DNA from: Candidatus Saccharimonadota bacterium
GTDB lineage: Bacteria > Patescibacteriota > Saccharimonadia > Saccharimonadales > Saccharimonadaceae
Reading direction: 5' to 3'
DNA length: 32,000 bases
Assembly (NCBI GenBank): GCA_016700015.1
Contig: CP064995.1
Span: 930,001-962,000 of the forward strand
A program made the position numbers and the translations under genes. The notes under the pieces are model-generated. The model searched no databases. It was not told where the DNA came from and worked only from the letters and a program-made list of their open reading frames with translations. The stretch's first letter is position 1; each line of letters opens with the position of its first letter. This document shows positions 4,870 through 23,020 of the stretch, one piece after another.

Positions 4870-5621
4870 ATGCAAAAGATACTTATCACTGGGGGGTCGG
4901 GCGGGATTGGTTACGCGTTAGCGCGGGTCGCTGCAGCGCATGGTCATGACATCGTCCTCGCGGCACGGAATGTCGAGCATCTCGCGCTCGCTCAGCAAAC
5001 ACTGCAAAAAGACCACAAGATAAGTGTTGACATTAAACAAGCGGATTTATCAAAACCGGGCGCAGCACGAAAACTTTACGACGAGCTAAAGAGTGACGGT
5101 ATCGAGATACTCGTCAACAATGCCGGCTTTGGATTGGTCGGTGATTTTTTCAAAGAAGACATCGCCGATAACATAGACATGGTGCAACTAAACGCCCAGG
5201 CATTAATGGAACTGACGCACTATTTTGGTAATGATTTCATAAAGAAAAAGCGAGGGAAGATCCTGAATGTTGCGTCAGTCGCAGCATTTGTGCCCGGCCC
5301 GAAACAACCGGTGTACTATGCGACAAAGGCTTTTGTGAGAAGCTTCTCGCGAGCACTTGCTCTATGGCACCTCACGGCGTGACGGTGACAAACCTCAACC
5401 CCGGTGCGACAAAGACGAACTTTTTTGTGCGGGCAAAGGTGGGCACAAAAGAACGTGGCGTCTCCGCTGATGCGGTCGCTGAGGCGGCGTATGCAGCGAT
5501 GATGAGCGGAAAGTCAGAGATCACCTATGGATTCACAAACAAGATCCTTACTAACTTCCTCGTGAGGATTGCACCCTACCGCGTGCAAGCAGCACTAATC
5601 GACAAGAACTCTGAAGTATAG
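4870..5621 (+). pseudogene. Short-chain dehydrogenase/reductase (SDR) interrupted by a frameshift
   Basis: ORF 4870-5382 carries TGGSGGIG, NNAG and YYATK. ORF 5364-5621, in another frame, continues with APHGVTVTNLNPGATKTNF, the expected SDR continuation. The frames switch at ~5361-5366 ('gct cta tg gca'), where the usual 'EL' of 'ALALELAPHG' is missing. Confidence 0.75.
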
Positions 5622-5664: not shown

Positions 5665-6177
5665 ATGCCCTCAACACTCATTATCATTCGCGGAAATTCG
5701 GGGAGCGGGAAGACGACTGTCGCCAAAGAACTGCGCAGTAGAATTGGTGACGGTTTGAGCGACAACACCCTGCTTGTCCAGCAAGATGTGCTGCGACGTG
5801 ACATGCTGCGAGAGCGCGATATGCTAGAGAAACGCTCGGTGATTGAGCTAATCGAATTGGTGGTAGAGTTCGGCCGTAGACAAGGGAGAACTGTGATACT
5901 CGAAGGGATACTTGCTACAAAAAAGTATGGTCCAATGCTTCAACAATTAGCCAGTCAGTTTGATGAAGCACATGTGTACTACCTCGACATACCGTTTGAT
6001 GAAACGCTGCGAAGGCACGCCACTAAACCAAATGCCCACGAATTTGGAGAAAAAGAAATGCGCGAATGGTGGAACGAGAAGGACTACCTACACATAGATG
6101 GCGAGAAGCTACTCGATAAATCTAAGAGTGTCGAAGATATCACTACTCAAATTATCGCTGATGTTGGTAATGCGTAG
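5665..6177 (+). CDS. P-loop kinase-like protein (AAA_33-type)
   Basis: Walker A 'GNSGSGKTTVAKEL' at the N-terminus. It is 170 aa, the size and layout of small nucleotide/antibiotic-kinase-like P-loop proteins. Confidence 0.7.
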   Translation: MPSTLIIIRGNSGSGKTTVAKELRSRIGDGLSDNTLLVQQDVLRRDMLRERDMLEKRSVIELIELVVEFGRRQGRTVILEGILATKKYGPMLQQLASQFDEAHVYYLDIPFDETLRRHATKPNAHEFGEKEMREWWNEKDYLHIDGEKLLDKSKSVEDITTQIIADVGNA

Positions 6178-6239: not shown

Positions 6240-6248
6240 TGCTATGAT
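6240..6248 (+). promoter_or_regulatory. Extended -10 promoter abutting ATG 6255 (leaderless)
   Basis: TGcTATGAT, then 6 nt (gaagct), then ATG. Confidence 0.5.
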
Positions 6249-6254
6249 GAAGCT

Positions 6255-7025
6255 ATGACGAATATCACACACGCAGCAAAACAATCACTTCGAAAACTCA
6301 ATATCGCCGCCGCGGTGTTTCACCTAGCGCTAGCACTATTTGTGCTGTACTGCTCGAACTCGTTTTCACTGCCGGTGACAGCGACGTACCTGGCGGGCCC
6401 TCCTGGCTCAATGTATACAGACCCAGTCACGTTGTTTGATGTGCGAGTGGGTTACGCCGTAGCGCTGTTTTTGGGGCTGTCGGCATTTTTCCACGTACTG
6501 GTGGCATCGAAGGCGTTCTTCGGGCGCTATATTACCGGTCTTAGCAACACAATCAATGTGTTTCGTTGGGTTGAGTACTCGATCAGCTCGACACTGATGA
6601 TTTTGCTTATCGCGCAGATTACGGGGATTAGTGATTATGGCGCGCTTCTCGGCATAGCTGGGGTAAATGTATCGATGATCTTGTTCGGCTGGCTGCAAGA
6701 AAAGTATACGCGTCCAGGCTCACGTGAATGGCTGCCCTTTATATTTGGTTGTATTGCAGGAATCGTGCCGTGGCTTATCGTGCTTATTTCGGTACTATCA
6801 CCCAACTCGCCGTCTGACGCTACACCGCCAGCGTTTGTCTACGGTATTATTGTGTCGATATTCCTTCTGTTTAATTCATTCGCACTGGTTCAGTACAAGC
6901 AGTACCGAGCACTCGGAAAGTGGAAAGACTATTTGCGCGGTGAGCGTGCGTATATCGTACTAAGCTTCACTGCCAAAGCAGCACTGGCGATTCAGATCTT
7001 TGCCAACACGCTAATCCCGAACTAA
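6255..7025 (+). CDS. Heliorhodopsin
   Basis: 256 aa, 7 TM. Long blocks match what I remember of heliorhodopsin 48C12: NVFRWVEYSISS (E107), ILFGWLQEKYT, LPFIFGCIAGIVPW, FVYGIIVSIFLLFNSFALVQYKQY and YLRGERAYIVLSFTAKAALAIQIF (K241, codon 6975-6977). Confidence 0.93.
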   Translation: MTNITHAAKQSLRKLNIAAAVFHLALALFVLYCSNSFSLPVTATYLAGPPGSMYTDPVTLFDVRVGYAVALFLGLSAFFHVLVASKAFFGRYITGLSNTINVFRWVEYSISSTLMILLIAQITGISDYGALLGIAGVNVSMILFGWLQEKYTRPGSREWLPFIFGCIAGIVPWLIVLISVLSPNSPSDATPPAFVYGIIVSIFLLFNSFALVQYKQYRALGKWKDYLRGERAYIVLSFTAKAALAIQIFANTLIPN

Positions 7026-7066
7026 TAGTCTGGCAAGTTGTTGACATAGCATATTTTTCGATTGTC

Positions 7067-7075
7067 TGATATACT
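7067..7075 (+). promoter_or_regulatory. Extended -10 promoter giving a ~120-nt 5' UTR for the RRM gene
   Basis: TGaTATACT (7067-7075). A TTGACA at 7041-7046 is 23 nt upstream, so not at canonical spacing. An SD (gaaagg) lies before ATG 7202. Confidence 0.4.
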
Positions 7076-7201
7076 AGTGATAGCAAGTTATTCTACTCCT
7101 TAACCAAGCGTACAAGTGTGGCACCAAACTCATTTTATTCTCGGCTACTGCACTAGACCCTATCTCGCACAATATTAGCTGATAGAAAGGTTCATGTACC
7201 C

Positions 7202-7507
7202 ATGGCAACAAAATTATATGTAGGAAAATTGTCCTTCAATACCACAAATGATAGCTTGAACGCGCTGTTTGCGCAGTTCGGCACCGTAGTCAGTGCCGAA
7301 GTCGCTACCGACCGAGAAACTGGTCGCTCGCGCGGCTTTGGATTTGTCGAAATGGAAAACGACGCTGATGCACAAAAAGCGATTGAGACACTTGATGGTA
7401 AAGACTTTGAGGAGCGTACCATTGTGGTGAATATCGCTAAACCGCGCGAGGATCGTCCACGCCCACAGGGTGGCGGAGATTATCGTGGTGGCTTTGGTCG
7501 TCGCTAA
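7202..7507 (+). CDS. RRM-type RNA-binding protein with Gly/Arg-rich tail
   Basis: RNP-2 'LYVGKL', RNP-1 'RGFGFVEM', and a C-terminal 'GGGDYRGGFGRR'. Confidence 0.92.
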   Translation: MATKLYVGKLSFNTTNDSLNALFAQFGTVVSAEVATDRETGRSRGFGFVEMENDADAQKAIETLDGKDFEERTIVVNIAKPREDRPRPQGGGDYRGGFGRR

Positions 7508-8074: not shown

Positions 8075-9073
8075 ATGATTTCATTTGTATGGCCACCTGG
8101 TGAGCCAATGCTTGGAGGTACCGGTGGTTCAGAGACCTACACGGCGGGGCACGTTCGTGAGCTGTTGCGGCGCGGTATCGATGCACAGGTGGTTACAATC
8201 GGTCATGGCATCAAAGACGGCCGTCAGGACTTTCGTGACGTGCCGTTTGTGTCGTTTGCAGACGAGAAGTCTATAGGTCAACTGGTCGGAACTGTGGTTT
8301 TTGTGAACAAAGCCTATCACGTTCCAACCCAACGCAAGTCGGCTATTATTCTACACTGTTCGATACCTAAGGTGACAGATCGACAACGGTATCAATCCTA
8401 TATTGTCGATAAGACAGTTATCGCCACCAGTGTCTACAGTGCGCAGCAATGGGCACTTTATCTCGATATACCGTATGCTCGTATCAATGTCGTCTTGCCA
8501 TTTGCCGACCCAAAGTATGGTGCTGTGATACGTCATAAGCCGTCAAAATATACGCGCATTGTCTATGCTGGCAGGCTACATCCCGAGAAGGGTATATACA
8601 CAATACTTGAAATGATGCACCAGCAGGACATGCAGAATCACGAATATCGACTAGCTATTGTTACAGCAGGACAGCACGTAGCGGTTGGTCGCGAGATTGC
8701 GCGTATGTTGCAAGGACATCCTTTTGCACGGCTTATTCCTGCAAAGAAATCGGTTAATGAGATGGCCGAACTACTCGCACACGTCGATGTACTACTCATG
8801 CCATCGGTGTTTGCTGAACCGTTTGGGATGCTTTCGATCGAAGCGCAGCATGCCGGGTGTCGTGTTGTTGCGAGCAATGTAGGGGGTTTGCCAGAAACCA
8901 ATTGTGGATTGCTCACTCTCGTTGAGCCGCGAAGCCCACTGGCTCTTATGACCGGTATCAAGCAAGCGCGTGCTCTCGGGAGCGCGACCAGAAGAGAGCG
9001 TGACCAAGCTAGGCGTGAATTTCGTCTTGATGATTCAGTTGACGGACTGCTGATGGCGTTGAAACACAACTAA
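8075..9073 (+). CDS. Glycosyltransferase family 4 (GT-B)
   Basis: N-terminal 'GGTGGSETY' and C-terminal 'EPFGMLSIEAQHAGCRVVASNVGGLPE' (EX7E-type motif). An SD (aaagaaagga) lies upstream. Confidence 0.85.
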   Translation: MISFVWPPGEPMLGGTGGSETYTAGHVRELLRRGIDAQVVTIGHGIKDGRQDFRDVPFVSFADEKSIGQLVGTVVFVNKAYHVPTQRKSAIILHCSIPKVTDRQRYQSYIVDKTVIATSVYSAQQWALYLDIPYARINVVLPFADPKYGAVIRHKPSKYTRIVYAGRLHPEKGIYTILEMMHQQDMQNHEYRLAIVTAGQHVAVGREIARMLQGHPFARLIPAKKSVNEMAELLAHVDVLLMPSVFAEPFGMLSIEAQHAGCRVVASNVGGLPETNCGLLTLVEPRSPLALMTGIKQARALGSATRRERDQARREFRLDDSVDGLLMALKHN

Positions 9074-9165
9074 TATTTTTATTATGTCAGCTATACTATA
9101 TACGCCAGCCAGAAAGTTTTGTATAACTAAGAGTACATATAACCATAGGAGGATGTTTGCATAAT

Positions 9166-9780
9166 ATGAGAGGCAAATTAAATATTACCAGTGTAGTCTT
9201 AGCTGTGCTTGTAGCAACTCTGGCGGTTATTGGCGCTTCATTTCCGGCTAGCGCTGCCGTAAAAGCACCCGCTAAACCTTCACTAACCGCAAGCTCCGTG
9301 TCAATTCTGCAGGGAGAGAGCGTGACCCTGAGCTGGTCGAGCCAGCGCGCATCATACTGTACACTCTTTCCAACTGGAAAAACGATTATGGGCTCGTCTG
9401 CGAGCTATACAATCAATAACCTAGTTGGCACAACTGGCTTTTATGTGACTTGTGTAAATAGTTCTGGAAGGGCGACTTCTAATGTCGTGACAGTATCGGT
9501 GGCGTCTTCAAATACACCCATGATTACCGCGTTCGTTGCGAGCCCAAGCTCCATCCTCTACGGAGAGTCAACCACACTTAATTGGTCCACGGTCAATGTT
9601 GTTGACGGGGACTGCTCGCTGAGCTCGCATGGGGTTTCGGGCCTTCCGGCGTCGGGTAGTTACACAACTGGACCACTTAAAGAAACGCAAACGTATACAC
9701 TAACATGTACTAATGGTTCGGGCACGTCTAGCCAGACCATTACTGTTTTCGTAGTTGATGTGATCGCACTAGGTTTCTAG
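9166..9780 (+). CDS. Secreted protein with two tandem Ig-like/Cys-pair repeats
   Basis: The start is taken at ATG 9166, 13 nt after AGGAGG at 9147-9152. Signal peptide ...ASFPASA/AV. The two repeats are 'SILQGESVTLSWSS...YCTL...YVTCVNSSG' and 'SILYGESTTLNWST...DCSL...TLTCTNGSG'. Confidence 0.7.
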   Translation: MRGKLNITSVVLAVLVATLAVIGASFPASAAVKAPAKPSLTASSVSILQGESVTLSWSSQRASYCTLFPTGKTIMGSSASYTINNLVGTTGFYVTCVNSSGRATSNVVTVSVASSNTPMITAFVASPSSILYGESTTLNWSTVNVVDGDCSLSSHGVSGLPASGSYTTGPLKETQTYTLTCTNGSGTSSQTITVFVVDVIALGF

Positions 9781-9812
9781 TATCACAAAATACCTCGCCC
9801 TGAAATTTGGCG

Positions 9813-11252
9813 CTACATCCAGCTGGTATGGAGTGGTCGGCCCTCGTCATACCCGGCTGTCGATTGAATGCCAATGATGGCATTTGCGCTAAATTCGTCG
9901 AGAGTTGCTGCGTCTGAATAGGTCATGGCGCTGCGTAGCCCTGAGGCGATTTTGTCGAGGATATCTTCTACCCCTGGGGCAGATGGGTCAAGATAGATGC
10001 GTGATTCCGAGATACCTTCCTGAAACAGTTCTTTACGGGCTTGATCAAACGGTGTTTCACGTGCATTACGATTTTTGACGGCACGATGTGATGCCATGCC
10101 GTAGTTAACCTTATACAGCCGCCCCTCATTATCGCGTATCATATCGGCGGCACTTTCGTGGGTGCCGGTGAGCCAGGAGGCAAACATAACTGAACTAGCG
10201 CCAGCCGCGAGAGCGAGCGCAACATCACGAGGGTGGCGAATGCCGCCGTCGGCAACGACGTGTTTGCCAAGGGAGCGAGCAGCCTGGGCGCACTCATAAA
10301 CAGCCGAAAACTGTGGGCGTCCGACGCCCGTCATCATCCTTGTTGTGCACATAGCACCTGGTCCAATCCCGACTTTGACGATATCGGCACCGGCATTCAG
10401 CAGTTCAGTGGTCGCCTCCGCAGTAGCGACATTGCCGGCAACAATCGGCACTGACGGCAGCGCGGCGCGGACGGCACCAATGGCATCAATCATCTTTTGC
10501 TGATGCCCATGGGCGGTGTCGATGACGATAATATCCGCACCGTGCTCGACAAGAAATTTTGCTTTAGCGACAACATCTCCATTGATACCAACCGCCACCG
10601 CAACAAGTAACCTGCCTTTTGCATCGAGTGCCGGTTTATACAAGGTCGAGCGCAGTGCAGACTTTTTTGTGGCACATCCTACTAGCTTGCCAGAACGATT
10701 GACAACCGGCACAAAGGTAAGTCGGTGCGTATCTAGTGTTGTGTAGATAGTGTCAGGCTTGGCAGTATCGCGCACTGTGATGAGATGGGTTTGCATGATA
10801 TCGCCAAGGCGGGTAAAACGGTCGAGACTACCGAGCATACGCTCGCTAACGACCCCAACAGGCTTACCATTCTCGACAATAATCGCATGACCATGCGACC
10901 GTTTTGGGATGAGGCTCAGCGCGTCATTGACGGTCTGAGTGCGGGTGAGTGTGATAGGCGTATCGAATACTGGGTGACACGACTTCACGTAACTAATCAT
11001 ACTTGCAAGCATATCGGGTGGCGTGTCTTGTGGGAGTACTGTGACGGCACCGCGCCGTGCGGTCACCTCGGCCATCCGTTTTCCCGCCACTGCCGTCATA
11101 TTTGAGACCATGATCGGTAGCGGTAGGGCTAATGGGTCGGGTGTTGTTAGGCTAACATCTTGGCGTGACGAAATGGTGGTTTTGCGTGGCACCAAAAACA
11201 CATCATTGTAGGTGAGTTCGGTTGTCGGTGGTTGGTCATGGAGAAACTGCAC
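9813..11252 (-). CDS. IMP dehydrogenase/GMP reductase family protein with a CBS pair (GuaB1-type)
   Basis: '[10 protein letters not shown]', the catalytic loop '[11 protein letters not shown]', '[21 protein letters not shown]', and the C-terminus '...[12 protein letters not shown]' typical of the GuaB1 subgroup. GTG start with GAGGA 8 nt upstream. Confidence 0.9.
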
Positions 11253-11367
11253 TCGGGTTATCCTCAGTTATATTATCTCAGTTCCTATTGTATCGAGTAT
11301 GCAATGATCTACAACCATAGACAAGATGGCAACTCTCTTATCAGTGGCGACGATAACACCTTTAGTA

Positions 11368-11373
11368 TACAAT
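11368..11373 (+). promoter_or_regulatory. -10 box close to ATG 11382
   Basis: TACAAT, then 8 nt (gaggccca), then ATG. The spacing is slightly longer than in the other cases. Confidence 0.3.
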
Positions 11374-11381
11374 GAGGCCCA

Positions 11382-12428
11382 ATGAGCACAGTTGTATTGC
11401 GGGATAAGGTTTTGCATGCAGTCGATGCGTATATCAAGCTACTTCTCCAACAGCGGCGTGACCGTGCTGTGAGTATTGGGCACTCATACGAAGCACTGTG
11501 GTCGCATACTAGTAATATGGTGATGAATGGCGGAAAACGGATCCGACCATACCTTACGTTTGTGGGGTATGGTGCGTATGATGAGCGACTGGTGCCAGTT
11601 GCGGCTGCTCAGGAACTCGCGCATGTCGCAATGCTAATGCATGATGATATCATCGACCAGGACGATGTCCGCAGAGGAGTGCCAAATATGAACGGCATCT
11701 ATAAATCGCTCTATGGTGGTTATCTCGATACACAACTCTCGACACATTACGCACACGCGGCGGCAATGCTAGCGGGCGATGCGCTGCTGTCTGAGGCCTA
11801 TCGTTTGGTGTATAGTGCCGGCTATGACCAGGCAGTGACGACACAGGTTGTCGCTCAACTTCATGAATCGATCTACGAAGTTATTGGCGGTGAATTGCTT
11901 GATGTCGAAGCCGGGTTTGTGACCGATACTGTGTTTGATCCGCTGATCGTCTATCGCTACAAGACATCGAGCTATAGTTTTATCGGGCCACTGCTGTCGG
12001 GCGCGTATTGTGCCGGTGTTGACGAGGCAACCATTGAAACACTTCGACAATATGCTATAAACGTCGGTATTGCGTTTCAAATCGAGGACGATTTACTCGG
12101 CGTTTTCGGTAATGAATCAGCGACGGGTAAGTCGAACGAAACAGATTTGCGAGAAGGCAAGTTGACCGCTCTTATCACCTATCACAGAGAAGGTATGAAT
12201 GATGAGCAGCGGCAACGGTTTGCCGTATTCGGCAACGCCGATGCCTCTTCGGCTGAGTTAGCTGCTCTTAGGGTAGATCTTGAAGCGTCGGGCGCGCGTC
12301 AAAAAACACGTCAGCTCGCTGAGCGATATTTCACTACTGCTATGCAGCACTTGCAGGCACTTGAGCCAGGGCCGCGTCGCACGGAACTAGAGCAGTTTAC
12401 ACGGCAGCTCAGAGGTAGGCAGGTCTAG
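11382..12428 (+). CDS. trans-Polyprenyl diphosphate synthase (FPP/GGPP synthase family)
   Basis: First Asp-rich motif 'MLMHDDIIDQDDVRRG'; second 'FQIEDDLLGVFG'; 'GKxxxxDLxEGK'. Confidence 0.9.
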   Translation: MSTVVLRDKVLHAVDAYIKLLLQQRRDRAVSIGHSYEALWSHTSNMVMNGGKRIRPYLTFVGYGAYDERLVPVAAAQELAHVAMLMHDDIIDQDDVRRGVPNMNGIYKSLYGGYLDTQLSTHYAHAAAMLAGDALLSEAYRLVYSAGYDQAVTTQVVAQLHESIYEVIGGELLDVEAGFVTDTVFDPLIVYRYKTSSYSFIGPLLSGAYCAGVDEATIETLRQYAINVGIAFQIEDDLLGVFGNESATGKSNETDLREGKLTALITYHREGMNDEQRQRFAVFGNADASSAELAALRVDLEASGARQKTRQLAERYFTTAMQHLQALEPGPRRTELEQFTRQLRGRQV

Positions 12429-12612
12429 CAACTCCGTACCTCATTGCCCTCACCAAGGCTCGTCAGCTGGTGTGCATGAGTATTTGTGTATAGGGATGCT
12501 CGGCTATATGGCGCTAGTGTTGACGCTCTGAGTAGGTGAAAGCATCGCACGGATTAAGGTTAAGTTGTAATAATCACAACGGTATGTACGTGACACTTGC
12601 GATCCGGACGCC

Positions 12613-12621
12613 TGCTATAAT
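12613..12621 (+). promoter_or_regulatory. Extended -10 promoter for the DUF1801 operon
   Basis: TGcTATAAT, followed by a short UTR with AGGAGG (12634-12639) before ATG 12644. Confidence 0.45.
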
Positions 12622-12643
12622 GAGGCTACCAACAGGAGGTGCT

Positions 12644-13075
12644 ATGAGTACATCGAGCGACATTAAAACCAAGCCAACTGACGTCAGTGTCGATGAGTTT
12701 ATCGACGCAGTAGCGGAGCCGCGCCGGTCAGAAGCCCGGCGGGTACTGGCAATTATGAGAGAAGTGACTGGGGTTGAACCAGTCATGTGGGGTTCGAGTA
12801 TGATTGGCTTTGGCAGCTATCATTATAAGTACGAGTCTGGTCGTGAGGGCGATATGCTCAAAGTCGGCTTCTCGCCCCGTAAATCCGCACTGGTACTCTA
12901 TGGACTGGTTTTCTACGACGAAAACGAACCAAACAACAAACTTCTCGAAAAGCTTGGTCCGCATACGCGCGGCAAGGGTTGCCTTTATATCAAAAAACTT
13001 TCCGATATCGATGAGTCGGTCTTGCGTACCATGATCAAAAATTCATATTCTCATACAACTTCAGCCGCATCATGA
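12644..13075 (+). CDS. DUF1801 (YdhG-like) domain protein
   Basis: The start at ATG 12644 has a perfect AGGAGG SD. 'PVMWGSSMIGFGSYHYKYESGREGD...GFSPRKSALVLY' is the remembered DUF1801 pattern. Confidence 0.8.
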   Translation: MSTSSDIKTKPTDVSVDEFIDAVAEPRRSEARRVLAIMREVTGVEPVMWGSSMIGFGSYHYKYESGREGDMLKVGFSPRKSALVLYGLVFYDENEPNNKLLEKLGPHTRGKGCLYIKKLSDIDESVLRTMIKNSYSHTTSAAS

Positions 13076-13410
13076 CAGTTGACGACTATATCGGACAATT
13101 CCACAGCGACGTACGTGAACGGCTTGAAACCATGCGCCGAACTATCCGTGAAGTTTCACCAGGCGCCGAAGAATCGATGGCCTATGGCATGCCAGCATAC
13201 AAACTACACGGTAAGCCGCTTGTTTACTTTGCTGGGTATAAAAACCACATCGGGTTCTACGCTACACCAAACGGTCACGAAACCTTCAAAACTGACTTTG
13301 CGAAGTATAAACAAGGCAAGGGTTCTGTGCAGTTTCCGCACGACCAACCATTGCCAGTCGATCTCGTGAGGCGAGTGGTTGTATATCGTGTCAAGCAATT
13401 AACAGTATAA
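13072..13410 (+). CDS. DUF1801 (YdhG-like) domain protein
   Basis: ATGA overlap with the upstream gene. 'VDDYI...LETMRRTIREVSPGAEESMAYGMPAYKLHGKPLVYFAGYKNHIGFY'. Confidence 0.8.
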   Translation: MTVDDYIGQFHSDVRERLETMRRTIREVSPGAEESMAYGMPAYKLHGKPLVYFAGYKNHIGFYATPNGHETFKTDFAKYKQGKGSVQFPHDQPLPVDLVRRVVVYRVKQLTV

Positions 13411-13421
13411 TAAGGAGGGAT

Positions 13422-13649
13422 ATGAAACAATCAGACAAAGTGTGTAGTTGCGAATACGACCACCACAGAAAGAGCAGGCGAAACTATAGCGGTAGCGGCA
13501 ACGCCGTCTACAGCCTTGGTGTGCTCGGTGCATTGGTCTACTATATCTCGACAGCCAGCGGTTTCTGGGTAGGCGTGCTCGGTGTGTTCAAAGCCATAGT
13601 CTGGCCAGCTTTTGTGGTATACGAAATAATGAAAATGCTGCAGATGTAA
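13422..13649 (+). CDS. Small membrane protein
   Basis: 75 aa, with an SD (AAGGAGGG) upstream. It has two hydrophobic spans: AVYSLGVLGALVYYI and FWVGVLGVFKAIVWPAFVVY. Confidence 0.6.
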   Translation: MKQSDKVCSCEYDHHRKSRRNYSGSGNAVYSLGVLGALVYYISTASGFWVGVLGVFKAIVWPAFVVYEIMKMLQM

Positions 13650-13650
13650 T

Positions 13651-14046
13651 ATGAGGGCGCAAGAAGGATATAGCGGTATGCCGCTTCTGCAAAAACTCGG
13701 CTACAAACCAGGAAAAATTTCGTATGTCGATAAGGTAGCACCGTATTATACCCACGTTTGTGACGACATAACACTTGGTGCGGCAGAGCCGTATGATTTT
13801 ATTCATATCTTCGTGAGAAACCATGACGAGCTTGTTCGTTCGTCTGGCCAAGCATTGCCGCTCCTGGCCAAGACGGGCAAATTGTGGGTGTCATGGCCTA
13901 AGCAGTCCGCCGAGGTTGCGACCGACCTGACCGGCAATACCGTCCGCGAATATATGCTGACTACTGGCCTTGTTGATGTTAAGGTTGCCGCCATCGACGC
14001 TACGTGGTCGGGTTTGCTGTTCGTCTACCGTGTCAAAGATAGATAA
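13651..14046 (+). CDS. DUF3052 family protein
   Basis: N-terminal 'GYSGMPLLQKLGYKPG' and C-terminal 'VDVKVAAIDATWSGLLFVYR', as remembered for DUF3052. Confidence 0.7.
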   Translation: MRAQEGYSGMPLLQKLGYKPGKISYVDKVAPYYTHVCDDITLGAAEPYDFIHIFVRNHDELVRSSGQALPLLAKTGKLWVSWPKQSAEVATDLTGNTVREYMLTTGLVDVKVAAIDATWSGLLFVYRVKDR

Positions 14047-14063
14047 CGCTCATCATGGCCAAC

Positions 14064-14072
14064 TGATATACT
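14064..14072 (+). promoter_or_regulatory. Extended -10 promoter abutting ATG 14079 (leaderless)
   Basis: TGaTATACT, then 6 nt (aggaca), then ATG. Confidence 0.5.
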
Positions 14073-14078
14073 AGGACA

Positions 14079-15380
14079 ATGAAGAATTTCTATCGTCTGC
14101 TAGTCAACACGCTCATCGCCAACGTCACGACAAGTTTTTTGTGGTTTGCGTTGACATTTTGGGTATATTTAGAGACAAAAAATGTTATGGCTACGGCAAT
14201 CATCGGCGGTAGCTATATGTTGATGCTGGCGGTCACCGGGCTATTTTTCGGAACATTGGTTGACCGCTTTCATAAAAAGCATGTTATGACGGTCGCATCT
14301 GCCATAACGGCACTTATGTACGGTTTAGGTGGCGCTATCTATGTATTTGTGCCTCATGAGCAGCTGCTTACAATAGGTGGTCCGTGGTTTTGGTTGTTTA
14401 CAACGATTATTTTGTGTGGCTGTATCGTTGAGAATAGCCGCAATATTGCCCTGAGTACCTGCGTGACAATTATGGTTCCTGAAGATAGGCGCGCGAACGC
14501 CAACGGGCTCGTCGGCATGGTGCAGGGTCTGGCTTTTATGATTACGTCGATATTTAGCGGGTTGGCCATTGGCTACCTCGGCATGGGTTGGACGCTGGTG
14601 ATTTCAATCGCACTGACAGTTTTTGCACTCATCGACTTGCTATTTGTAACAATCAACGAAAAACAGATCGTACACGACCCCAAACTCCAACAGAAACTGG
14701 TTGATTTCAGAGGCGCATGGTTGGCCATACGGGCCGTGCCGGGCCTGCTGGCACTGATATTGTTTGCAACATTTAACAATCTAGTCGGCGGGGTCTTTAT
14801 GACATTACTTGACCCATATGGATTGACACTTACCAGTGTGCAGATGTGGGGATTTGTCTATGCAATTTCGAGCCTCGGGTTTATGGTTGGTGGGGCACTC
14901 GTTGCTAAAATGGGGTTAGGTAAAAACCCGCTACGCGTACTATTGCTTGGTAACGTCGTCGTCGGGATCATTGGTTTTGTTATGGGTATCCGTGAGTCGT
15001 TGTGGTTACTCGCGGTCAGTATGTTTGCCTATATGTCGACGGTTCCAGTTATCGAAGCGGCCGAGCAAACGACATTGCAAAGAATCGTGCCGCTCAAAAA
15101 ACAAGGTCGGGTGTTTGGGTTTGGGCAAAGTGTCGAAGCTGCGGCCTCACCCGTCTCGGCCTACATGATTGGTCCGATTGCCCAGCTGTGGATCATTCCG
15201 TACATGGCAAGTCCCGAAGGCAAGGCGACCTGGGGCTGGCTGGTTGGGCAGGGCGAAGCGCGCGGTATGGCCCTTGTATTTATGGGTGCAAGTCTCATCA
15301 TGCTCATTGCAGCCCTCATGGCATTTCGATCGCGCGCGTATACGTCGTTGACTCACGAGTACAGGACGGATGAACGATGA
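14079..15380 (+). CDS. MFS transporter
   Basis: 433 aa with ~12 hydrophobic spans. 'GTLVDRFHKK' is the loop 2-3 motif typical of MFS efflux-type proteins. Confidence 0.85.
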   Translation: MKNFYRLLVNTLIANVTTSFLWFALTFWVYLETKNVMATAIIGGSYMLMLAVTGLFFGTLVDRFHKKHVMTVASAITALMYGLGGAIYVFVPHEQLLTIGGPWFWLFTTIILCGCIVENSRNIALSTCVTIMVPEDRRANANGLVGMVQGLAFMITSIFSGLAIGYLGMGWTLVISIALTVFALIDLLFVTINEKQIVHDPKLQQKLVDFRGAWLAIRAVPGLLALILFATFNNLVGGVFMTLLDPYGLTLTSVQMWGFVYAISSLGFMVGGALVAKMGLGKNPLRVLLLGNVVVGIIGFVMGIRESLWLLAVSMFAYMSTVPVIEAAEQTTLQRIVPLKKQGRVFGFGQSVEAAASPVSAYMIGPIAQLWIIPYMASPEGKATWGWLVGQGEARGMALVFMGASLIMLIAALMAFRSRAYTSLTHEYRTDER

Positions 15381-15485
15381 CTTTTTCGGTTTTCGACTGA
15401 TGACAGCGAGGCATCACTACGGGTATAAGTTACATGTGATATTACGAACGGTTACATAATAACAGAGGTAGCAAAAAGCAAATGG

Positions 15486-15514
15486 TTACATATTAGTATT
15501 TCTTGAGTTACAAT
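15486..15514 (+). promoter_or_regulatory. Promoter abutting ATG 15522
   Basis: TTACAT (15486-15491), a 17-nt spacer, then TACAAT (15509-15514), then 7 nt to the ATG. Confidence 0.45.
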
Positions 15515-15521
15515 TGAGGGT

Positions 15522-16676
15522 ATGATACATATACCGGCGCCAGCACACAATTCGAAACTGACTAAGCTCGTTGTCGAACTGAGTAGTCTCAAAGATCATG
15601 CAGTAAGCGGCACTACTCCTGTGTGGATATTTTTCGAGTTAAAAAATTTGTTTCATATCGTCGAGGCACTTTCTTCTGCGCGCATAGAGGGTAACCATAC
15701 GACACTTGCCACATTTGTCGAGAAAAAACTTGACAAGTCTGATACAAAAAACGAAAAGCTGATCGAGATATCTAATCTTATTGAGGCGCTCAGTTATATA
15801 GATGGCTCAATCAATGAGGCAGTGATAGATAAGGATTACGTGTTTGCACTACATCGCATAGTTGTACGCAATCTGAGCGTAGGAACAGGCTGCGAGGGCG
15901 ATAAACGGCCCGGTGCCTATCGGCGTGAAAATAGAGCTATTGCAAAGTCAAGCCTAGTGCTGCCACAACACTATGATGTCCCAGATCTGATGACAGAATT
16001 CTATGACTTTTTGCAACGCCCGGAGTTGCCCCAGGACGATTTGTTGAAAATTGCCATCGCGCATCACAGATTTGTACAGATTCATCCGTTCGGCAATGGT
16101 AATGGTAGGGTTGTGCGACTACTGACGTACGCCATGCTGTGCAAGAAAGGATATATAATCCCTGGTTCTGCCCGCTTATTTAATCCAACAGCAGTTTTTG
16201 CTGGAGATCGAGACAGGTATTATGAAAAGTTGAGCCAGGCAGACAAGGGGGATGACGCAAGCCTGGCAGCATGGTGTGAGTATGTCCTCGACGGGCTAAA
16301 AACCGAGGTTGAAAAATCTCAAAAGTTTGCAGATCACAAGTTTGTACAAGATAACATACTGCTGCCTGCCTTCAGCTGGGCATTAGAAAAAAATGTTTTT
16401 AGCGAGTTGGAATATAAAATTCTTGTACGCCTCGCGAGGAAATCCAGCATAAAAGCTGGCGATATTCGTGATCTGTGGCCGGCAGACTATTCTCACGTTG
16501 TTGTATCGAAACAACTACGCAAGTTGAGGCGGCAGGGGTTTATTACAACGCTTAAGCCCAAGGGGAGATCTTATGTTCTGAAGCTAACAGGCAACAAGGC
16601 AACCAGAGGGATATTAGACCAAATGGACGCCCAAGGTTTACTGCCGATTCGCGTAGACGATGTTGAGCATGTATAG
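15522..16676 (+). CDS. Fic family protein (class II-like, with N-terminal inhibitory motif and a C-terminal wHTH-like region)
   Basis: The Fic motif is 'HPFGNGNGRVVR', i.e. HxFx(D/E)GNGRxxR with Asn at the acidic position. 'SSARIEGN' matches the (S/T)xxxE(G/N) inhibitory helix. Confidence 0.88.
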   Translation: MIHIPAPAHNSKLTKLVVELSSLKDHAVSGTTPVWIFFELKNLFHIVEALSSARIEGNHTTLATFVEKKLDKSDTKNEKLIEISNLIEALSYIDGSINEAVIDKDYVFALHRIVVRNLSVGTGCEGDKRPGAYRRENRAIAKSSLVLPQHYDVPDLMTEFYDFLQRPELPQDDLLKIAIAHHRFVQIHPFGNGNGRVVRLLTYAMLCKKGYIIPGSARLFNPTAVFAGDRDRYYEKLSQADKGDDASLAAWCEYVLDGLKTEVEKSQKFADHKFVQDNILLPAFSWALEKNVFSELEYKILVRLARKSSIKAGDIRDLWPADYSHVVVSKQLRKLRRQGFITTLKPKGRSYVLKLTGNKATRGILDQMDAQGLLPIRVDDVEHV

Positions 16677-16700
16677 AGTTCGATGTTCCACACGAATTTT

Positions 16701-16961
16701 CTAGGTTTTCCAGCGCTCGAGATGGGGAAGTTGTTTTTGGGCTAGCCAGCGCATCAGTCGGCCGCTGCCATTTTCGACCAGCGCTTTGTCGACGATTGTT
16801 CTCATCTCATCGAGGGTGCAGTCGGGTCCAATAAACGTACCGTTTTCGTAGCAAAGGCTACACCATTTTTCACTCTTGGTGCCGTCTGCTTCTGTGCCAC
16901 GGCAGTCACCTGCTTTTTTGGTACTTAGCGGCATCCCGCAGCTTTGACATTGTTTGCTCAT
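16701..16961 (-). CDS. Zinc-ribbon domain protein
   Basis: 'CQSCGMPL...GTEADGTKSEKWCSLCYENGTF' is the putative zinc-ribbon family pattern. TATAAT and AGGAGG lie upstream on the minus strand. Confidence 0.75.
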   Translation of the reverse strand: MSKQCQSCGMPLSTKKAGDCRGTEADGTKSEKWCSLCYENGTFIGPDCTLDEMRTIVDKALVENGSGRLMRWLAQKQLPHLERWKT

Positions 16962-17055
16962 ATCATGTACCTCCTAAGGTAATTATACTCCTGGTAGGGT
17001 TGGCGCTAAACACCCACACCCATTAATGTATTATTAGGGGAAGGAGAACTTATTT

Positions 17056-17247
17056 ATGAAGAACGAAAAGAAATCAACTCAAAACACGGGGCCGCAAGTT
17101 GACCCGATTCTCGTCATCGGAATTGCACTCGTACCCATAGGGATTGCACTCGCGAGCAGCGAGGCGAAAGCTGCCGGTTATGTCTCTCTGTTTTTTGCGG
17201 CGGCCATGATGATAGGCTCTGTTGCAAAACAGGCAAAGAGAAAATAG
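17056..17247 (+). CDS. Small membrane protein
   Basis: 63 aa, with an SD (GAAGGAG) upstream and two hydrophobic spans. Confidence 0.45.
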   Translation: MKNEKKSTQNTGPQVDPILVIGIALVPIGIALASSEAKAAGYVSLFFAAAMMIGSVAKQAKRK

Positions 17248-17287
17248 AAATTCACAACTGGCTCGGGCATGGTTGGAAACACCAGAG

Positions 17288-17293
17288 TATACT
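17288..17293 (+). promoter_or_regulatory. -10 box abutting ATG 17300 (leaderless)
   Basis: TATACT, then 6 nt (gactct), then ATG. Confidence 0.4.
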
Positions 17294-17299
17294 GACTCT

Positions 17300-17824
17300 A
17301 TGAAGTATGTTGTATTATTGAGGGGTATTAATGTCGGTGGAAACCGCAAGGTGCCGATGGCGGATTTGCGGGCGGTTTTTGAAGGTATGGGGTTCGCTGA
17401 CGTAGTAACATACATAAACTCTGGCAATGTGGTTTTTTCGGCACAGACGGCTCCAGTAGCAAGTGCCATTAAAGCACGGCTGGAGAAAGCTTTTGGCTTT
17501 GACATCGATACGCTGGTGTTATCTCAGGCGGAAGTCGTATCTGTTGCGAAGGCTATCCCAGACGAATGGTTGAATGACGCGGAGCAAAAGAGCGACGTAC
17601 TGTACCTGTTTGCGGACATTGATTCGTCAGATATCATGAGCAGCATTGGCTTCCGCCCAGAGTTCGAAACAATCCATTACGTGCCGGGCGCACTCATCAC
17701 GAATGTGTCGCGCAAATACCAGTCAAAAAGTAGCCTGCTCAAACTGGTCGGCACGCCACTGTATAGGCGCATGACTATCCGTAACGTCACGACTGCCCGC
17801 AAACTTGCTGAATTGGTACAATAG
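17300..17824 (+). CDS. DUF1697 family protein
   Basis: The start at ATG 17300 gives 'MKYVVLLRGINVGGNRKVPMADLRAVFEGMGF..VVTYINSGNVVF', the canonical DUF1697 N-terminus. Confidence 0.85.
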   Translation: MKYVVLLRGINVGGNRKVPMADLRAVFEGMGFADVVTYINSGNVVFSAQTAPVASAIKARLEKAFGFDIDTLVLSQAEVVSVAKAIPDEWLNDAEQKSDVLYLFADIDSSDIMSSIGFRPEFETIHYVPGALITNVSRKYQSKSSLLKLVGTPLYRRMTIRNVTTARKLAELVQ

Positions 17825-17828
17825 CGTC

Positions 17829-18545
17829 ATGACAGCAGAAGACGTAGTGTCCGAAATGCAGAACTATGCTAGTGATGCCGATGCGGTGAATCTGCAATGG
17901 TTTTTCAAGACGGGGCCGGGGGAATATGGTGAGGGTGATCAATTTATCGGCGTACGCGTGCCGATGATTCGGAAGGTTTGCAAAGAGTTTCGGCAATTGT
18001 CACTTGCTGAGGTACAAAAACTCATCGAAAGCCCGTTTCATGAGCACCGCATGGCAGGGCTCATCATATTGACACTCCAATACCCGCGTGCGTCAAATCA
18101 AGCGAAAAATGACATACTTGACCTCTATATGCAGGAGCTAAAGAGGCGAAATATCAATAATTGGGACCTTGTCGACGTCACGTGTCGCCACATCGTCGGC
18201 GAACATGTGCGAGATAACCGTGAAGTGCTATTCGAACTTGCGAAGAGCGACAACCTCTGGGAGCGTCGCGTCAGTATCATCAGTACCTTTGCCTATATCG
18301 CCCATGGTGATGCGAGTACTTCGCTCGAACTGGCCGAACTGCTGTTGCATGACCACGAAGACCTGATGCATAAAGCTGTTGGCTGGACACTCCGCGAAGT
18401 CGGCAAACGCTGCGACGAGCAACTGCTGCGTGATTTTCTCGACCGTCATGCCCACGACATGCCACGGACTGCGCTACGTTACGCTATAGAGCACCTGCCA
18501 GAAATCGATCGGCAGTACTACTTGTTATGTAAAGATACTGCATGA
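17829..18545 (+). CDS. DNA alkylation repair protein (AlkD-like HEAT-repeat family)
   Basis: The start is taken at ATG 17829. 'NLQWFFKTGPGEYGEGDQFIGVRVPMIRKV' and 'HKAVGWTLREVGKR' are remembered signatures of this family. Confidence 0.8.
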   Translation: MTAEDVVSEMQNYASDADAVNLQWFFKTGPGEYGEGDQFIGVRVPMIRKVCKEFRQLSLAEVQKLIESPFHEHRMAGLIILTLQYPRASNQAKNDILDLYMQELKRRNINNWDLVDVTCRHIVGEHVRDNREVLFELAKSDNLWERRVSIISTFAYIAHGDASTSLELAELLLHDHEDLMHKAVGWTLREVGKRCDEQLLRDFLDRHAHDMPRTALRYAIEHLPEIDRQYYLLCKDTA

Positions 18546-18585
18546 GCTCGTGACAGTTGTCGCGCCGGTATGCATGGGTGGTGAT

Positions 18586-18601
18586 TGTGAGATCAGTCAC
18601 A
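18586..18601. promoter_or_regulatory. Perfect CRP/FNR-family-type palindrome TGTGA-N6-TCACA
   Basis: TGTGAgatcagTCACA. It lies 8 nt upstream of the TGgTATGAT box and 50 nt before ATG 18651. Confidence 0.5.
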
Positions 18602-18606
18602 GATAG

Positions 18607-18615
18607 TGGTATGAT
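18607..18615 (+). promoter_or_regulatory. Extended -10 promoter for the 18651-21256 operon
   Basis: TGgTATGAT. The UTR contains AAGGAGG before ATG 18651. Confidence 0.45.
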
Positions 18616-18650
18616 AGCTCTATAGGGCGAGTGCCCACAAAGGAGGCATT

Positions 18651-21256: not shown

Positions 21257-21278
21257 ATAATTTAAAAAGGGAGTGTAT

Positions 21279-21677
21279 ATGCGATATGTAATGCAACTAC
21301 TAGTAGCCGGTGGGGTCATGGGACTATTGGATTTTGTGTGGCTCGGCTACATTGCAAAGCGGCTGTACTACAGCGAAATGGGGAACATACTACTTGAAAA
21401 GTTCAACATGGTGCCAGCACTGCTATTTTACGTGATTTATGTCATTGGCGTGGTGGTATTCGTCATCAATCCCGCGCTGGCTAAGGGATCGCTAGCCTAT
21501 GCGGCTGGCTATGGTGCACTCTTTGGACTTGTTGCCTATGCGACCTATGATCTAACTAGTCTCGCGGTAGTCAAGGGATTTAGCACAAAGATTGTGGTGA
21601 TAGATATGGTGTGGGGGATGGCGCTGACAGCCGTTGTTGCATCAATCGCCTATCTCGTGGTGCACAAATGGTTTTAG
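21279..21677 (+). CDS. DUF2177 family membrane protein
   Basis: The start is taken at ATG 21279, 6 nt after AAGGGAG. 'LLDFVWLGYIAKRLY', 'YATYDLTSLAVVKGFS' and 'IDMVWG' match the DUF2177 pattern. Confidence 0.75.
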   Translation: MRYVMQLLVAGGVMGLLDFVWLGYIAKRLYYSEMGNILLEKFNMVPALLFYVIYVIGVVVFVINPALAKGSLAYAAGYGALFGLVAYATYDLTSLAVVKGFSTKIVVIDMVWGMALTAVVASIAYLVVHKWF

Positions 21678-22453
21678 GCGATATTTTACCTATGTTCGTG
21701 GCGGCATTGGTCGGGGCACTGTGCCTTCAGCTGCTGGCATATGCACAGTACCTCCGCCACAGCAGGGTCGACGTCGTCGATGTTGCTTGGGGGATGACGT
21801 TCGTTGCGGCGGTTGTTGCCATGCAGATCCACAGGCCCACACTTGCACCAAGCGTGCTACTGGTCGATGGGCTGGTACTGGTGTGGGCTGCCCGACTATC
21901 GCTCCATATTTACCAGCGTTTTGTGCGCACGAGCCGTCAGGACGAACGCTACACTACTCTGGTGGCGCGGTGGCCTCGGCGACATATGCGACTACAGGTA
22001 CTGACAAGGATTTTTATGGTACAGGCGCTACTTGCGGTCATGGTGAGTGCGCCAGTAGCCATAATTCATCATTACCAGCCGTCACTTACAACCTTGGTGT
22101 GGTGTGGACTGGTGATATGGACAGTGGGGTTTGTGATCGAAATGTGGGCCGATCGCCAGCTGACAGTCTTTTTACGTACCGCCAAGCCAGGTAGTCTAAT
22201 GCAGTCGGGGCTGTGGCGTTACTCTCGGCACCCGAACTATTTTGGCGAGATTACTATGTGGTGGGGTATTGCAGTGATGGCAGTCACCACGCCACTCTGG
22301 TTGGTCGGACTGATGGGTGCTGCTACGATTACAATTTTGATTTGCTATGTGTCGGGTATCCCACTTGCAGAGCAGCGCGCATCTGAAAAAAGAGAATGGG
22401 AAATATATCGAAAAACGACAAGTGTACTGGTGCCGCTACCGCGACGTGAGTAA
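21668..22453 (+). CDS. DUF1295 family membrane protein (steroid-reductase/ICMT-like fold)
   Basis: The start is taken at ATG 21668, a 10-nt overlap with the upstream gene. Signature 'GLWRYSRHPNYFGEITMWWG'. Confidence 0.8.
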   Translation: MVLGDILPMFVAALVGALCLQLLAYAQYLRHSRVDVVDVAWGMTFVAAVVAMQIHRPTLAPSVLLVDGLVLVWAARLSLHIYQRFVRTSRQDERYTTLVARWPRRHMRLQVLTRIFMVQALLAVMVSAPVAIIHHYQPSLTTLVWCGLVIWTVGFVIEMWADRQLTVFLRTAKPGSLMQSGLWRYSRHPNYFGEITMWWGIAVMAVTTPLWLVGLMGAATITILICYVSGIPLAEQRASEKREWEIYRKTTSVLVPLPRRE

Positions 22454-22464
22454 TGTGAAAATTA

Positions 22465-22491
22465 ATAGCTCGGTCTAATCGACCGAGCTAT
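22465..22491. terminator. Bidirectional hairpin terminator between convergent genes
   Basis: atagctcggtc / taatc / gaccgagctat. This is a perfect 11-bp stem with a 5-nt loop, between the stops at 22453 (+) and 22509 (-). Confidence 0.65.
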
Positions 22492-22508
22492 CTCTACACA
22501 ACCCTAGT

Positions 22509-22907: not shown

Positions 22908-23020
22908 ACGCACCTCCTTGTTAGGTAGTTCCCACTATAGGATAGTAGAGCGAGCCACACAATTACAGAATAGCAACTAAAGATAAGAAAATGATGTTAT
23001 AAGTACAACAGTAATGATTT

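Follow-up and report, generated by a model that had tools for sequence, protein, structure and literature searches.

What does a heliorhodopsin (HeR) do in a bacterium with a small genome, and where could its retinal come from when no retinal-synthesis gene is found around it? This question is raised by a gene at positions 6255..7025, on the + strand, of a 32,000-nucleotide stretch of DNA from a Candidatus Saccharimonadota bacterium (contig CP064995.1, positions 930,001 to 962,000), the whole of which is referred to here as the window. The gene starts with ATG and encodes a protein of 256 amino acids, which profile, alignment, and structural model place with 48C12 in HeR subfamily 1. A previous reading of the locus, made from the letters alone (the sequence-only reading), had recognized a HeR and drawn attention to its neighbors and to its missing retinal genes. 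Taking the evidence jointly, we consider it probable that the protein is a canonical subfamily-1 HeR that serves as a light sensor or regulator and obtains its retinal from outside.

Sequence and structure of the HeR

The protein matched the Pfam family PF18761 over its full length (profile positions 1-242 of 242), with 300.5 bits against a cut-off of 26.7 (E 1e-89), and the NCBIfam equivalog NF038020 'HeR' with 302.7 bits against a cut-off of 100. In a phmmer search against the PDB, 48C12 (6su3/9ljj/6uh3) gave the best matches (E ~5e-95). These profile and structure-database matches are far beyond chance and bear out the family call of the sequence-only reading. The Bac_rhodopsin profile gave no match to the window HeR in the Pfam scan, which sets the protein apart from the type-1 microbial rhodopsins. 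The alignment with 48C12 is gap-free and pairs residues 10-255 of one protein with residues 10-255 of the other, 155 of the 246 positions (63%) being identical; therefore, the residue numbers of 48C12 apply directly to the window HeR.

In this numbering, the Schiff-base counterion is Glu107 in the motif FRWVEYS (codon GAG, 6573..6575, + strand) and the retinal Schiff-base lysine is Lys241 in SFTAKAALAIQIF (codon AAA, 6975..6977, + strand), aligned with E107 and K241 of 48C12. The sequence-only reading had named both residues and the shared numbering, and the alignment indicated that neither the lysine nor the glutamate is misaligned. For residue comparisons we used 78 HeRs, comprising 19 from Saccharibacteria and 59 from Actinobacteria. 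E107 was invariant in both groups (19/19 and 59/59), as were S237 and K241 in the helix-G motif S237-F-T-A-K241, an SxxxK motif in which Ser replaces Asp212 of bacteriorhodopsin.

The functional residues listed by Kovalev et al. (2020) from the 1.5-Å structures of 48C12 (PMC7049168) were read off the alignment. The Schiff-base set (K241, E107, S237, S111, and S76) is that of 48C12, and S76 and S111 are invariant along with E107. The Schiff-base cavity (H23, H80, N101, Y108, N16, E230, R104, and Y92), the hydrophobic barrier (L12, L96, and L227), and the E149 region (E149, Q216, Y226, W105, and Q213) are all identical to those of 48C12, 16 of 16 residues at these three sites, which characterize subfamily 1. 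The retinal pocket is also identical (F72, M115, N138, M141, I142, F206, S112, W173, F162, and C166), the fenestration carries I170, F203, and N207 as in 48C12 (N138 too), and P40 and P172 are present, the latter belonging to the π-bulge of helix E. Almost all of the residues listed for these six sites are invariant across the comparison set.

Differences from 48C12 were found elsewhere. The extracellular polar cluster Q26/S242/W246 of 48C12 is replaced by L26/A242/I246, a co-varying swap that occurs in 5 of the 19 Saccharibacteria sequences and is nearly invariant among relatives with at least 74% identity. The dimer-interface Y179 is Ser, and S113T (in the second shell of the retinal pocket) and K218R were also observed. 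The second polar cluster, Q247/S201, is kept, as is D127 at the dimer interface, and Q26L, S242A, W246I, and Y179S are consistent changes in the subclade of the window. The polar inter-helix clusters are structural and not catalytic, and dimer residues differ between HeR groups (Kovalev et al., PMC7049168). As judged from the alignment, the departures of the window HeR appear to be peripheral. Viral subfamily 2 is characterized by Glu at the position of L202, by the loss of Asn138 and Pro172, and by His at 162/166 (PMC7049168); the window HeR has I202, N138, P172, F162, and C166 and shows none of these V2HeR3-like features.

The AlphaFold2 model of the window HeR (predicted local distance difference test score, 75; predicted template-modeling score, 0.74) has seven helices and a β-hairpin in the long A-B loop, with strands at 41-44 and 58-61. 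Its template-modeling score (TM-score) was 0.89 to 6SU3 and approximately 0.81 to TaHeR, compared with 0.5-0.6 to type-1 rhodopsins. Under a model with the N-terminus inside, the computed count of Lys and Arg is 15 on the cytoplasmic side and 1 outside, with K241 lying in the core. 48C12 is likewise positive inside and negative outside (PMC7049168), and the computed charge pattern agrees with the inverted topology that the sequence-only reading had assumed.

The open reading frame (ORF) is intact in five independent assemblies. Over codons 1-100, the diverged part of the gene, the ratio of nonsynonymous to synonymous substitution rates (dN/dS) against the gene of Ca. Saccharimonas aalborgensis is approximately 0.07, and protein identity across relatives is 74-95% with third-codon positions near saturation. 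These values indicate that the HeR is under strong purifying selection; the ORF is a working gene for a typical HeR of the 48C12 subfamily.

Host and relatives

The closest named protein to the window HeR, at 95% identity, belongs to Ca. S. aalborgensis, which has a complete genome of 1,013,781 bp (CP005957.1); the other named relatives are from Saccharibacteria or Saccharimonadales. The guess from the letters that the host is a reduced bacterium belonging to the candidate phyla radiation (CPR) was thereby confirmed. In a neighbor-joining tree rooted with TaHeR, 37 of 60 bootstraps united the Saccharibacteria HeRs, and 60 of 60 recovered the subclade of the window. A transfer of the HeR from Actinobacteria was considered and not adopted; the Saccharibacteria clade may or may not be nested within the actinobacterial sequences (34 of 60 bootstraps), which reached up to 67% identity. 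Two HeR contigs from metagenome-assembled genomes (MAGs) labeled 'Burkholderiales' (L013) and 'Acidimicrobiia' (L018) fell inside the Saccharibacteria HeR clade; these are probably mis-binned Saccharibacteria contigs rather than transfers.

Promoter of the HeR gene

An extended -10 element, TGCTATGAT, is located at 6240..6248 (+ strand) and ends 6 nucleotides upstream of the ATG of the HeR gene, with no Shine-Dalgarno sequence between. The same arrangement, TGnTAnnnT followed by 6 nucleotides and ATG, precedes the HeR gene in approximately 16 of 18 Saccharibacteria loci, where the upstream DNA is otherwise unalignable. This recurrence amid unalignable DNA gives a leaderless HeR transcript good support from comparison between loci, in line with the leaderless promoter proposed in the sequence-only reading. 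The transcript appears to start at or near 6255 from this promoter of its own. A simple sigma-70 scan, which requires a -35 element, did not flag it.

This arrangement is not specific to the HeR. TAnnnT occurs at exactly the same distance of 6 nucleotides from the start codon in 7 of the 34 window genes (starts 1360, 4870, 5665, 6255, 14079, 24112, and 29931), none with a Shine-Dalgarno sequence, compared with approximately 0.6 expected from base composition. The TG extension is present in six of the seven, including the genes for a P-loop kinase-like protein and for a short-chain dehydrogenase/reductase (SDR) upstream of the HeR, and two further genes (starts 15522 and 23021) have TAnnnT with a 7-nucleotide spacing. 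With about a quarter of the window genes arranged in this way, leaderless transcription seems to be common in this genome. Because the kinase and HeR genes each have an extended -10 element adjoining the ATG, each appears to start its own transcript. No intrinsic terminator was detected after the HeR gene in the scan; thus, HeR transcription may read through into the next gene, which encodes an RNA-binding protein.

Genes around the HeR and candidate partners

Upstream of the HeR lies the P-loop kinase-like gene (5665..6177, + strand), assigned to AAA_33 and to NCBIfam PRK06762 'hypothetical protein', with its own promoter TGCTACTAT at 6 nucleotides from the ATG. Downstream, after a spacer of 176 nucleotides, lies a gene for an RRM_1 RNA-binding protein of 101 amino acids (7202..7507, + strand), preceded by the Shine-Dalgarno sequence GAAAGG. 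Pfam thus assigned both neighbors as they had been described from the sequence, and the kinase had been put forward there as an interaction partner of the HeR. We assessed the neighbors by tblastn of 18 window proteins against 85 HeR loci, by inspecting the contexts of the 95%, 83%, and 77% identical relatives, and by clustering all genes within 7 kb of the HeR at 24 Saccharibacteria-type loci. No consistently conserved HeR neighbor was found across these 24 loci within 7 kb.

Ca. S. aalborgensis has a similar order, AAA_33 - HeR - RRM, and the adjacency to RRM is kept only within the genus; at all other loci fetched, including those of the 83% and 77% identical Saccharibacteria HeRs, neither the kinase nor the RRM gene adjoins the HeR. 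The counterpart of the window kinase (86.5% nucleotide identity) is an AAA_33 gene located 6.5 kb upstream of the HeR in Ca. S. aalborgensis. The AAA_33 gene that abuts the HeR there is a different gene, part of a seven-gene block with no counterpart in the window. Comparison of the loci thus lends no support to a functional link. With an adjacency that is not conserved beyond the genus, a kinase gene with its own promoter, and an RRM gene with its own Shine-Dalgarno sequence, we consider both proteins poor candidates for HeR partners, and the partnership suggested for the kinase is not upheld.

Kim et al. (2024) described ten recurrent operon partners, and the published set consists of glutamine synthetase, NAD synthetase, a photolyase, MerR, TerC, an ABC transporter, SDR, alpha/beta hydrolase, DUF2177, and DUF2238. 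AAA_33 and RRM are not on this list, the window HeR has its own promoter and does not share an operon with a partner, and neither a glutamine synthetase nor a photolyase nor a half-ABC exporter is encoded beside it. In the 83% identical relative, an alpha/beta hydrolase gene lies immediately downstream of the HeR.

Farther away, 14 kb from the HeR, the window carries an overlapping pair of membrane-protein genes (21273..22453, + strand), which Pfam assigned to DUF2177 (21273-21677) and DUF1295 (21611-22453). In the Saccharimonadia locus L012, this pair lies directly downstream of the HeR on the same strand (9892-11108); a DUF1295 gene adjoins the HeR in L011 (985-1761), and DUF2177 is found 2.4 kb from the HeR in L024 (4714-5112). 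The clustering within 7 kb missed DUF2177 because the window copy sits outside that distance, and a targeted search recovered it. Across phyla including Patescibacteria, the most HeR-specific neighbor families are DUF2177 and DegV, often joined by DUF1295 as the third, for which a role in membrane-lipid remodeling and oxidative stress has been proposed (Chazan et al., bioRxiv 10.1101/2021.02.16.431466). In Chlamydomonas, singlet oxygen induces DUF2177, DUF1295, and DUF1365 genes. On these gene positions, the DUF2177-DUF1295 pair is the best genomic partner candidate for the window HeR, i.e., a lead and not a result.

A linkage of HeR to histidine kinases (Bulzu et al.) was also considered and rejected; the only histidine kinase gene of the window, CHASE-HisKA at 25082-26857, is 18 kb away and falls outside the 10-kb criterion. 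Two genes upstream of the HeR, the SDR-family oxidoreductase gene (4870-5621) is split into ORFs of 170 and 85 amino acids by a frameshift near 5364-5382. Since the junction is identical in three independent assemblies, one of them from a strain with 99.0% identity, the frameshift is fixed and not an assembly error.

A gene for a small OmdA/YdeI-family protein was observed 0.8-3.5 kb from the HeR in 5 of approximately 20 Saccharibacteria loci (L010 1485-1805; L019 10781-11038; L016 11743-12003; L014 12316-12651; and L086, the locus of Ca. S. aalborgensis, 13518-13916); the window copy (23021-23302, - strand) is 16 kb from the HeR. The shared ancestry of four of the five loci may account for this pattern. 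DUF1801 genes, from a family related to OmdA/YdeI, also recur near the HeR in several Saccharibacteria and Actinobacteria loci.

Chromophore supply

The Pfam scan of the larger window ORFs, excepting those for the ABC transporter and the PRPP synthetase and some of the small ones, revealed no BCD/Blh, SQS_PSY, Amino_oxidase/CrtI, or lycopene cyclase domain. A six-frame tblastn search of the whole window with crtB/I/Ye/Yf/Eb queries from a related Saccharimonadales genome, run without a Blh query, also gave nothing. The only related gene is that for a stand-alone trans-polyprenyl diphosphate synthase (11382..12428, + strand), 4.4 kb downstream of the HeR, which is the synthase that the sequence-only reading had placed 4 kb away. 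It is approximately 41% identical to the synthases that lead carotenoid (crt) operons in other Saccharimonadia, which are 42-56% identical among themselves, and shares with them the context of the first Asp-rich motif; it is followed by DUF1801 genes and not by a crt gene. For its chain length, no NCBIfam equivalog reached the cut-off.

Thus, the missing blh and crt genes noted in the sequence-only reading are indeed absent from the window; as a peculiarity of this locus, that observation did not hold, a HeR without adjacent retinal genes being the rule in the family. blh is generally rare beside HeR genes and co-occurs mainly with another rhodopsin in the genome (bioRxiv 10.1101/2021.02.16.431466). 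In the genomes of Saccharibacteria that carry rhodopsins, Jaffe et al. (2022) detected no blh; the type-1 rhodopsins of these bacteria took up added retinal within 30 s, with Nanopelagicales, which are Actinobacteria, as the proposed donors (PMC9296517). The survey by Chiriac et al. (2022) lists 80 HeRs from Saccharimonadia (PMC9166423). Because blh is rare beside HeR genes, because retinal scavenging has been proposed for Saccharibacteria, and because Saccharimonadia HeRs have already been published, the absence of nearby retinal genes is not noteworthy in itself.

A six-gene operon for a polyprenyl synthase, phytoene synthase, CrtI, two small lycopene-cyclase-domain subunits, and a UbiA prenyltransferase (crtE-B-I-Ye-Yf-Eb) was observed in related Saccharimonadia, on contigs of 794-829 kb: L091 8108-12951 (the contig of L007/L090), L092 8107-12969, and L093 8205-13001. 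L091 belongs to a MAG of the Saccharimonadales, and its HeR, 77% identical to the window HeR, lies 7.9 kb from the operon. Two of the three operon contigs were traced to Saccharimonadales, L091 by its MAG label and L093 by an upstream gene order shared with L091, and CrtI homologues were present in related clusters labeled Saccharimonadaceae and Microsaccharimonas. No BCD/Blh gene was found within 10 kb of the three operons. A UbiA elongase together with small heterodimeric cyclase subunits is the layout of C50-carotenoid synthesis in Corynebacterium and Micrococcus, a pathway that bypasses β-carotene. An earlier report describes C50-type carotenoid genes in Patescibacteria of Lake Baikal. These operons warn against assuming that all CPR hosts of rhodopsins are without isoprenoid pigment pathways.

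Recombination and gene content around the HeR

The HeR of Ca. S. aalborgensis, annotated as a 'conserved membrane protein of unknown function', has the same length as the window HeR, the same RRM gene downstream, and the same extended -10 element, and all 13 substitutions between the two proteins are within residues 5-97. The gene is a mosaic, its 5' third being 19% diverged at the nucleotide level and its 3' two-thirds 99% identical. A tract at 6579..7215 (against L086 10325-10961), covering HeR codons 109-256 and the entire HeR-RRM spacer, is approximately 99% identical, with 3 differences in 447 nucleotides and a synonymous divergence (dS) of 0.06 in its HeR part. In its flanks, identity falls to 81% over HeR codons 1-108 (dS 0.96) and to 89% in the RRM gene. 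When more distant HeRs are compared, third-codon positions diverge evenly along the gene; therefore, the tract does not reflect synonymous constraint. A conserved RNA element was rejected as its cause, as Rfam gave only tRNA-Gln and the spacer folded no better than shuffles (z +1.6). By comparison of the sequences, the tract is best interpreted as a recent homologous recombination between two Saccharimonas lineages, with a breakpoint inside the HeR gene beside the E107 codon.

Around this tract, the upstream and further downstream contents differ, and large indels set the two loci apart, with a small core conserved between them. Approximately 15 kb of the window (8075-23000, against L086 11271-13500) has no counterpart at the matching position of Ca. 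S. aalborgensis; this region encodes GT4, Ig-like, IMPDH, the polyprenyl synthase, two DUF1801 proteins, MFS, Fic, DUF1697, a DNA-alkylation-repair protein, two large proteins without an assigned family, and DUF2177/DUF1295. The seven-gene block upstream of the HeR in Ca. S. aalborgensis (L086 3641-9841) encodes NUDIX/NrtR, a GTP-cyclohydrolase-like protein, PRAI, a cyclase, PRTase, HAD, and AAA_33, and an ATP-grasp gene follows its RRM gene. Near the start of the window, at 1360-2290, a ThsB-type TIR-domain protein gene (PF08937, 98 bits) overlaps the end of a gene for a predicted membrane protein of 149 amino acids without a family match; the two could be an anti-phage defense pair.

Proposed function and alternative explanations

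From the characterized homologues, we assume that the window HeR would insert with its N-terminus inside and bind all-trans-retinal at K241 with E107 as the counterion. On illumination, the Schiff-base proton would move only into the internal cavity of His residues and water, without ion transport, and a long-lived photoproduct may touch a partner protein directly and so change its activity. The protein would thus be a light sensor or regulator and not an energy converter. Judging from the window and from what is published on the clade, the cell would make no retinal, and the apoprotein would be loaded with external retinal, most plausibly from actinobacterial hosts. The retinal may enter by the lateral opening that lies between helix E and helix F, where the fenestration residues are conserved. 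A partnership with DUF2177-DUF1295 would point to a light-triggered response that concerns membrane lipids or photo-oxidative stress.

Several points weigh against this explanation. What is proposed for retinal binding, for the photocycle, and for the absence of transport is extrapolated from 48C12, a homologue with 63% identity. The search for crt and blh genes covers the 32-kb window and not the whole genome, and full carotenoid operons are present in several related Saccharimonadia, in one case at 7.9 kb from the HeR. The DUF2177-DUF1295 pair is 14 kb from the window HeR and is adjacent or nearby in only 3 of approximately 20 related loci; as no neighbor is consistently conserved, the assignment of any HeR partner is weak. 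In addition, the closest relative that has been described was obtained from activated sludge, where there is little light, a habitat that is awkward for a purely photic role.

The last point would suit a relic gene or a light-independent role of the HeR, e.g., lipid binding by the apoprotein in a poorly lit host without retinal synthesis. Lipids are bound at the fenestration in crystal structures of HeRs (PMC7049168; bioRxiv 10.1101/2021.02.16.431466), and the fixed frameshift in the SDR gene indicates that the region tolerates gene decay. Such a role is very improbable given the ORF intact in five assemblies and the dN/dS of approximately 0.07; moreover, the lysine, the counterion, and all core residues of the retinal pocket are invariant across the 78 relatives, and a chromophore-free role would not need them. 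Even less credible is a role in light-driven or light-gated proton transport, comparable to that of the viral V2HeR3, which would energize the membrane of a bacterium with few other routes to a proton gradient. Some HeRs do transport protons, CPR bacteria would profit from it, and Saccharibacteria put their type-1 rhodopsins to this use (PMC9296517), but every residue of the Schiff-base cavity and of the hydrophobic half on the extracellular side is shared with 48C12, I202 is not Glu, and N138 and P172 are present. According to what is reported of the 2018 work of Pushkarev and colleagues, 48C12 is also said to have shown no ion transport.

We regard it as very unlikely that the HeR works with the adjacent P-loop kinase and/or the RRM protein. 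Characterized HeRs act on the products of neighboring genes, and the three genes are adjacent on the same strand in an order also seen in Ca. S. aalborgensis; against this stand the absence of both neighbors at the other HeR loci, the location of the counterpart of the window kinase 6.5 kb from the HeR in Ca. S. aalborgensis, the separate transcription and translation signals of the three genes, and two families that are outside the published recurrent neighbors. By contrast, endogenous retinal synthesis is the only alternative that the evidence did not reduce beyond a modest chance. Here the organism, although unlikely to do so, would make its own chromophore by means of carotenoid genes located elsewhere, together with a cleavage step that depends on blh, on a carotenoid-cleavage oxygenase, or on a route still to be discovered, the window being only 32 kb of the genome. 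Complete crtE-crtB-crtI-crtYe/Yf-UbiA operons exist on at least three genome-sized contigs of relatives, and Chazan et al. (bioRxiv 10.1101/2021.02.16.431466) argue for an undescribed retinal pathway in some HeR hosts. However, the window synthase does not lead an operon and no crt gene follows it, the C50-type layout of the operons yields no β-carotene, and neither their 10-kb surroundings nor the rhodopsin-bearing Saccharibacteria genomes (PMC9296517) contain blh. Among the best 120 matches, no CrtI homologue came from the two complete genomes of S. aalborgensis, which is weak evidence in the same direction. A light-sensing HeR loaded with external retinal remains the explanation that we prefer.

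Comparison with known systems

The window HeR most resembles 48C12 from an actinobacterial fosmid of Lake Kinneret (PDB 6SU3, 6SU4, 6UH3, and 9LJJ), to which it is aligned without gaps and with the highest TM-score; the host of 48C12 is an actinobacterium, whereas that of the window HeR is a CPR bacterium. The catalogued HeRs of Saccharimonadia and other CPR bacteria (PMC9166423) are of the same lineage and of the same SxxxK class, their commonest motifs being SLVAK, SLIAK, and SFVAK, compared with SFTAK here. SacRs, the type-1 rhodopsins of Saccharibacteria (PMC9296517), share the host phylum and the chromophore problem; however, they belong to another family, have the opposite topology, and are outward proton pumps.

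TaHeR from a Thermoplasmatales archaeon (PDB 6IS6) is approximately 41% identical to the window HeR. Its host is described as having no retinal pathway, and TaHeR captures retinal through a lateral fenestration. It differs in being archaeal, in its A-B loop, in the gaps needed to align it, and in its wider fenestration (Phe172/Ala200, compared with I170/F203 in 48C12 and the window HeR; PMC7049168). For function, the likely model is provided by the regulatory HeRs of the same family, i.e., AbHeR with glutamine synthetase, TfHeR with photolyase, and OcHeR with the OmrDE ABC transporter, in which light modulates a partner by contact. Their partners sit in the HeR operon, whereas the window HeR is a lone transcription unit.

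Implications

The presence of HeR in Saccharimonadia and the lack of nearby retinal genes have already been described; the window HeR is ordinary and not novel. It adds one sequence to the catalogued set and settles nothing about the function of heliorhodopsins. Its practical value is that a HeR of textbook conservation occurs in a genome of approximately 1 Mb, with a close complete reference (Ca. S. aalborgensis) and no operon partner to bias the interpretation. Two of the three most HeR-specific families, DUF2177 and DUF1295, are on the same contig. We can picture, as an improbable idea, that in Saccharimonas-type episymbionts the HeR is the light-sensing arm of a DUF2177-DUF1295 module for lipids and photo-oxidative stress and becomes functional only after receiving retinal from an actinobacterial host; the protein would thereby detect when contact with the host and light coincide. 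If this were true, a genome of approximately 1000 genes could be the simplest system in which to find the long-sought generic HeR partner. The lineage is, in any case, a reasonable low-complexity testbed for the hypotheses of lipid remodeling and oxidative stress and of retinal taken from the host.

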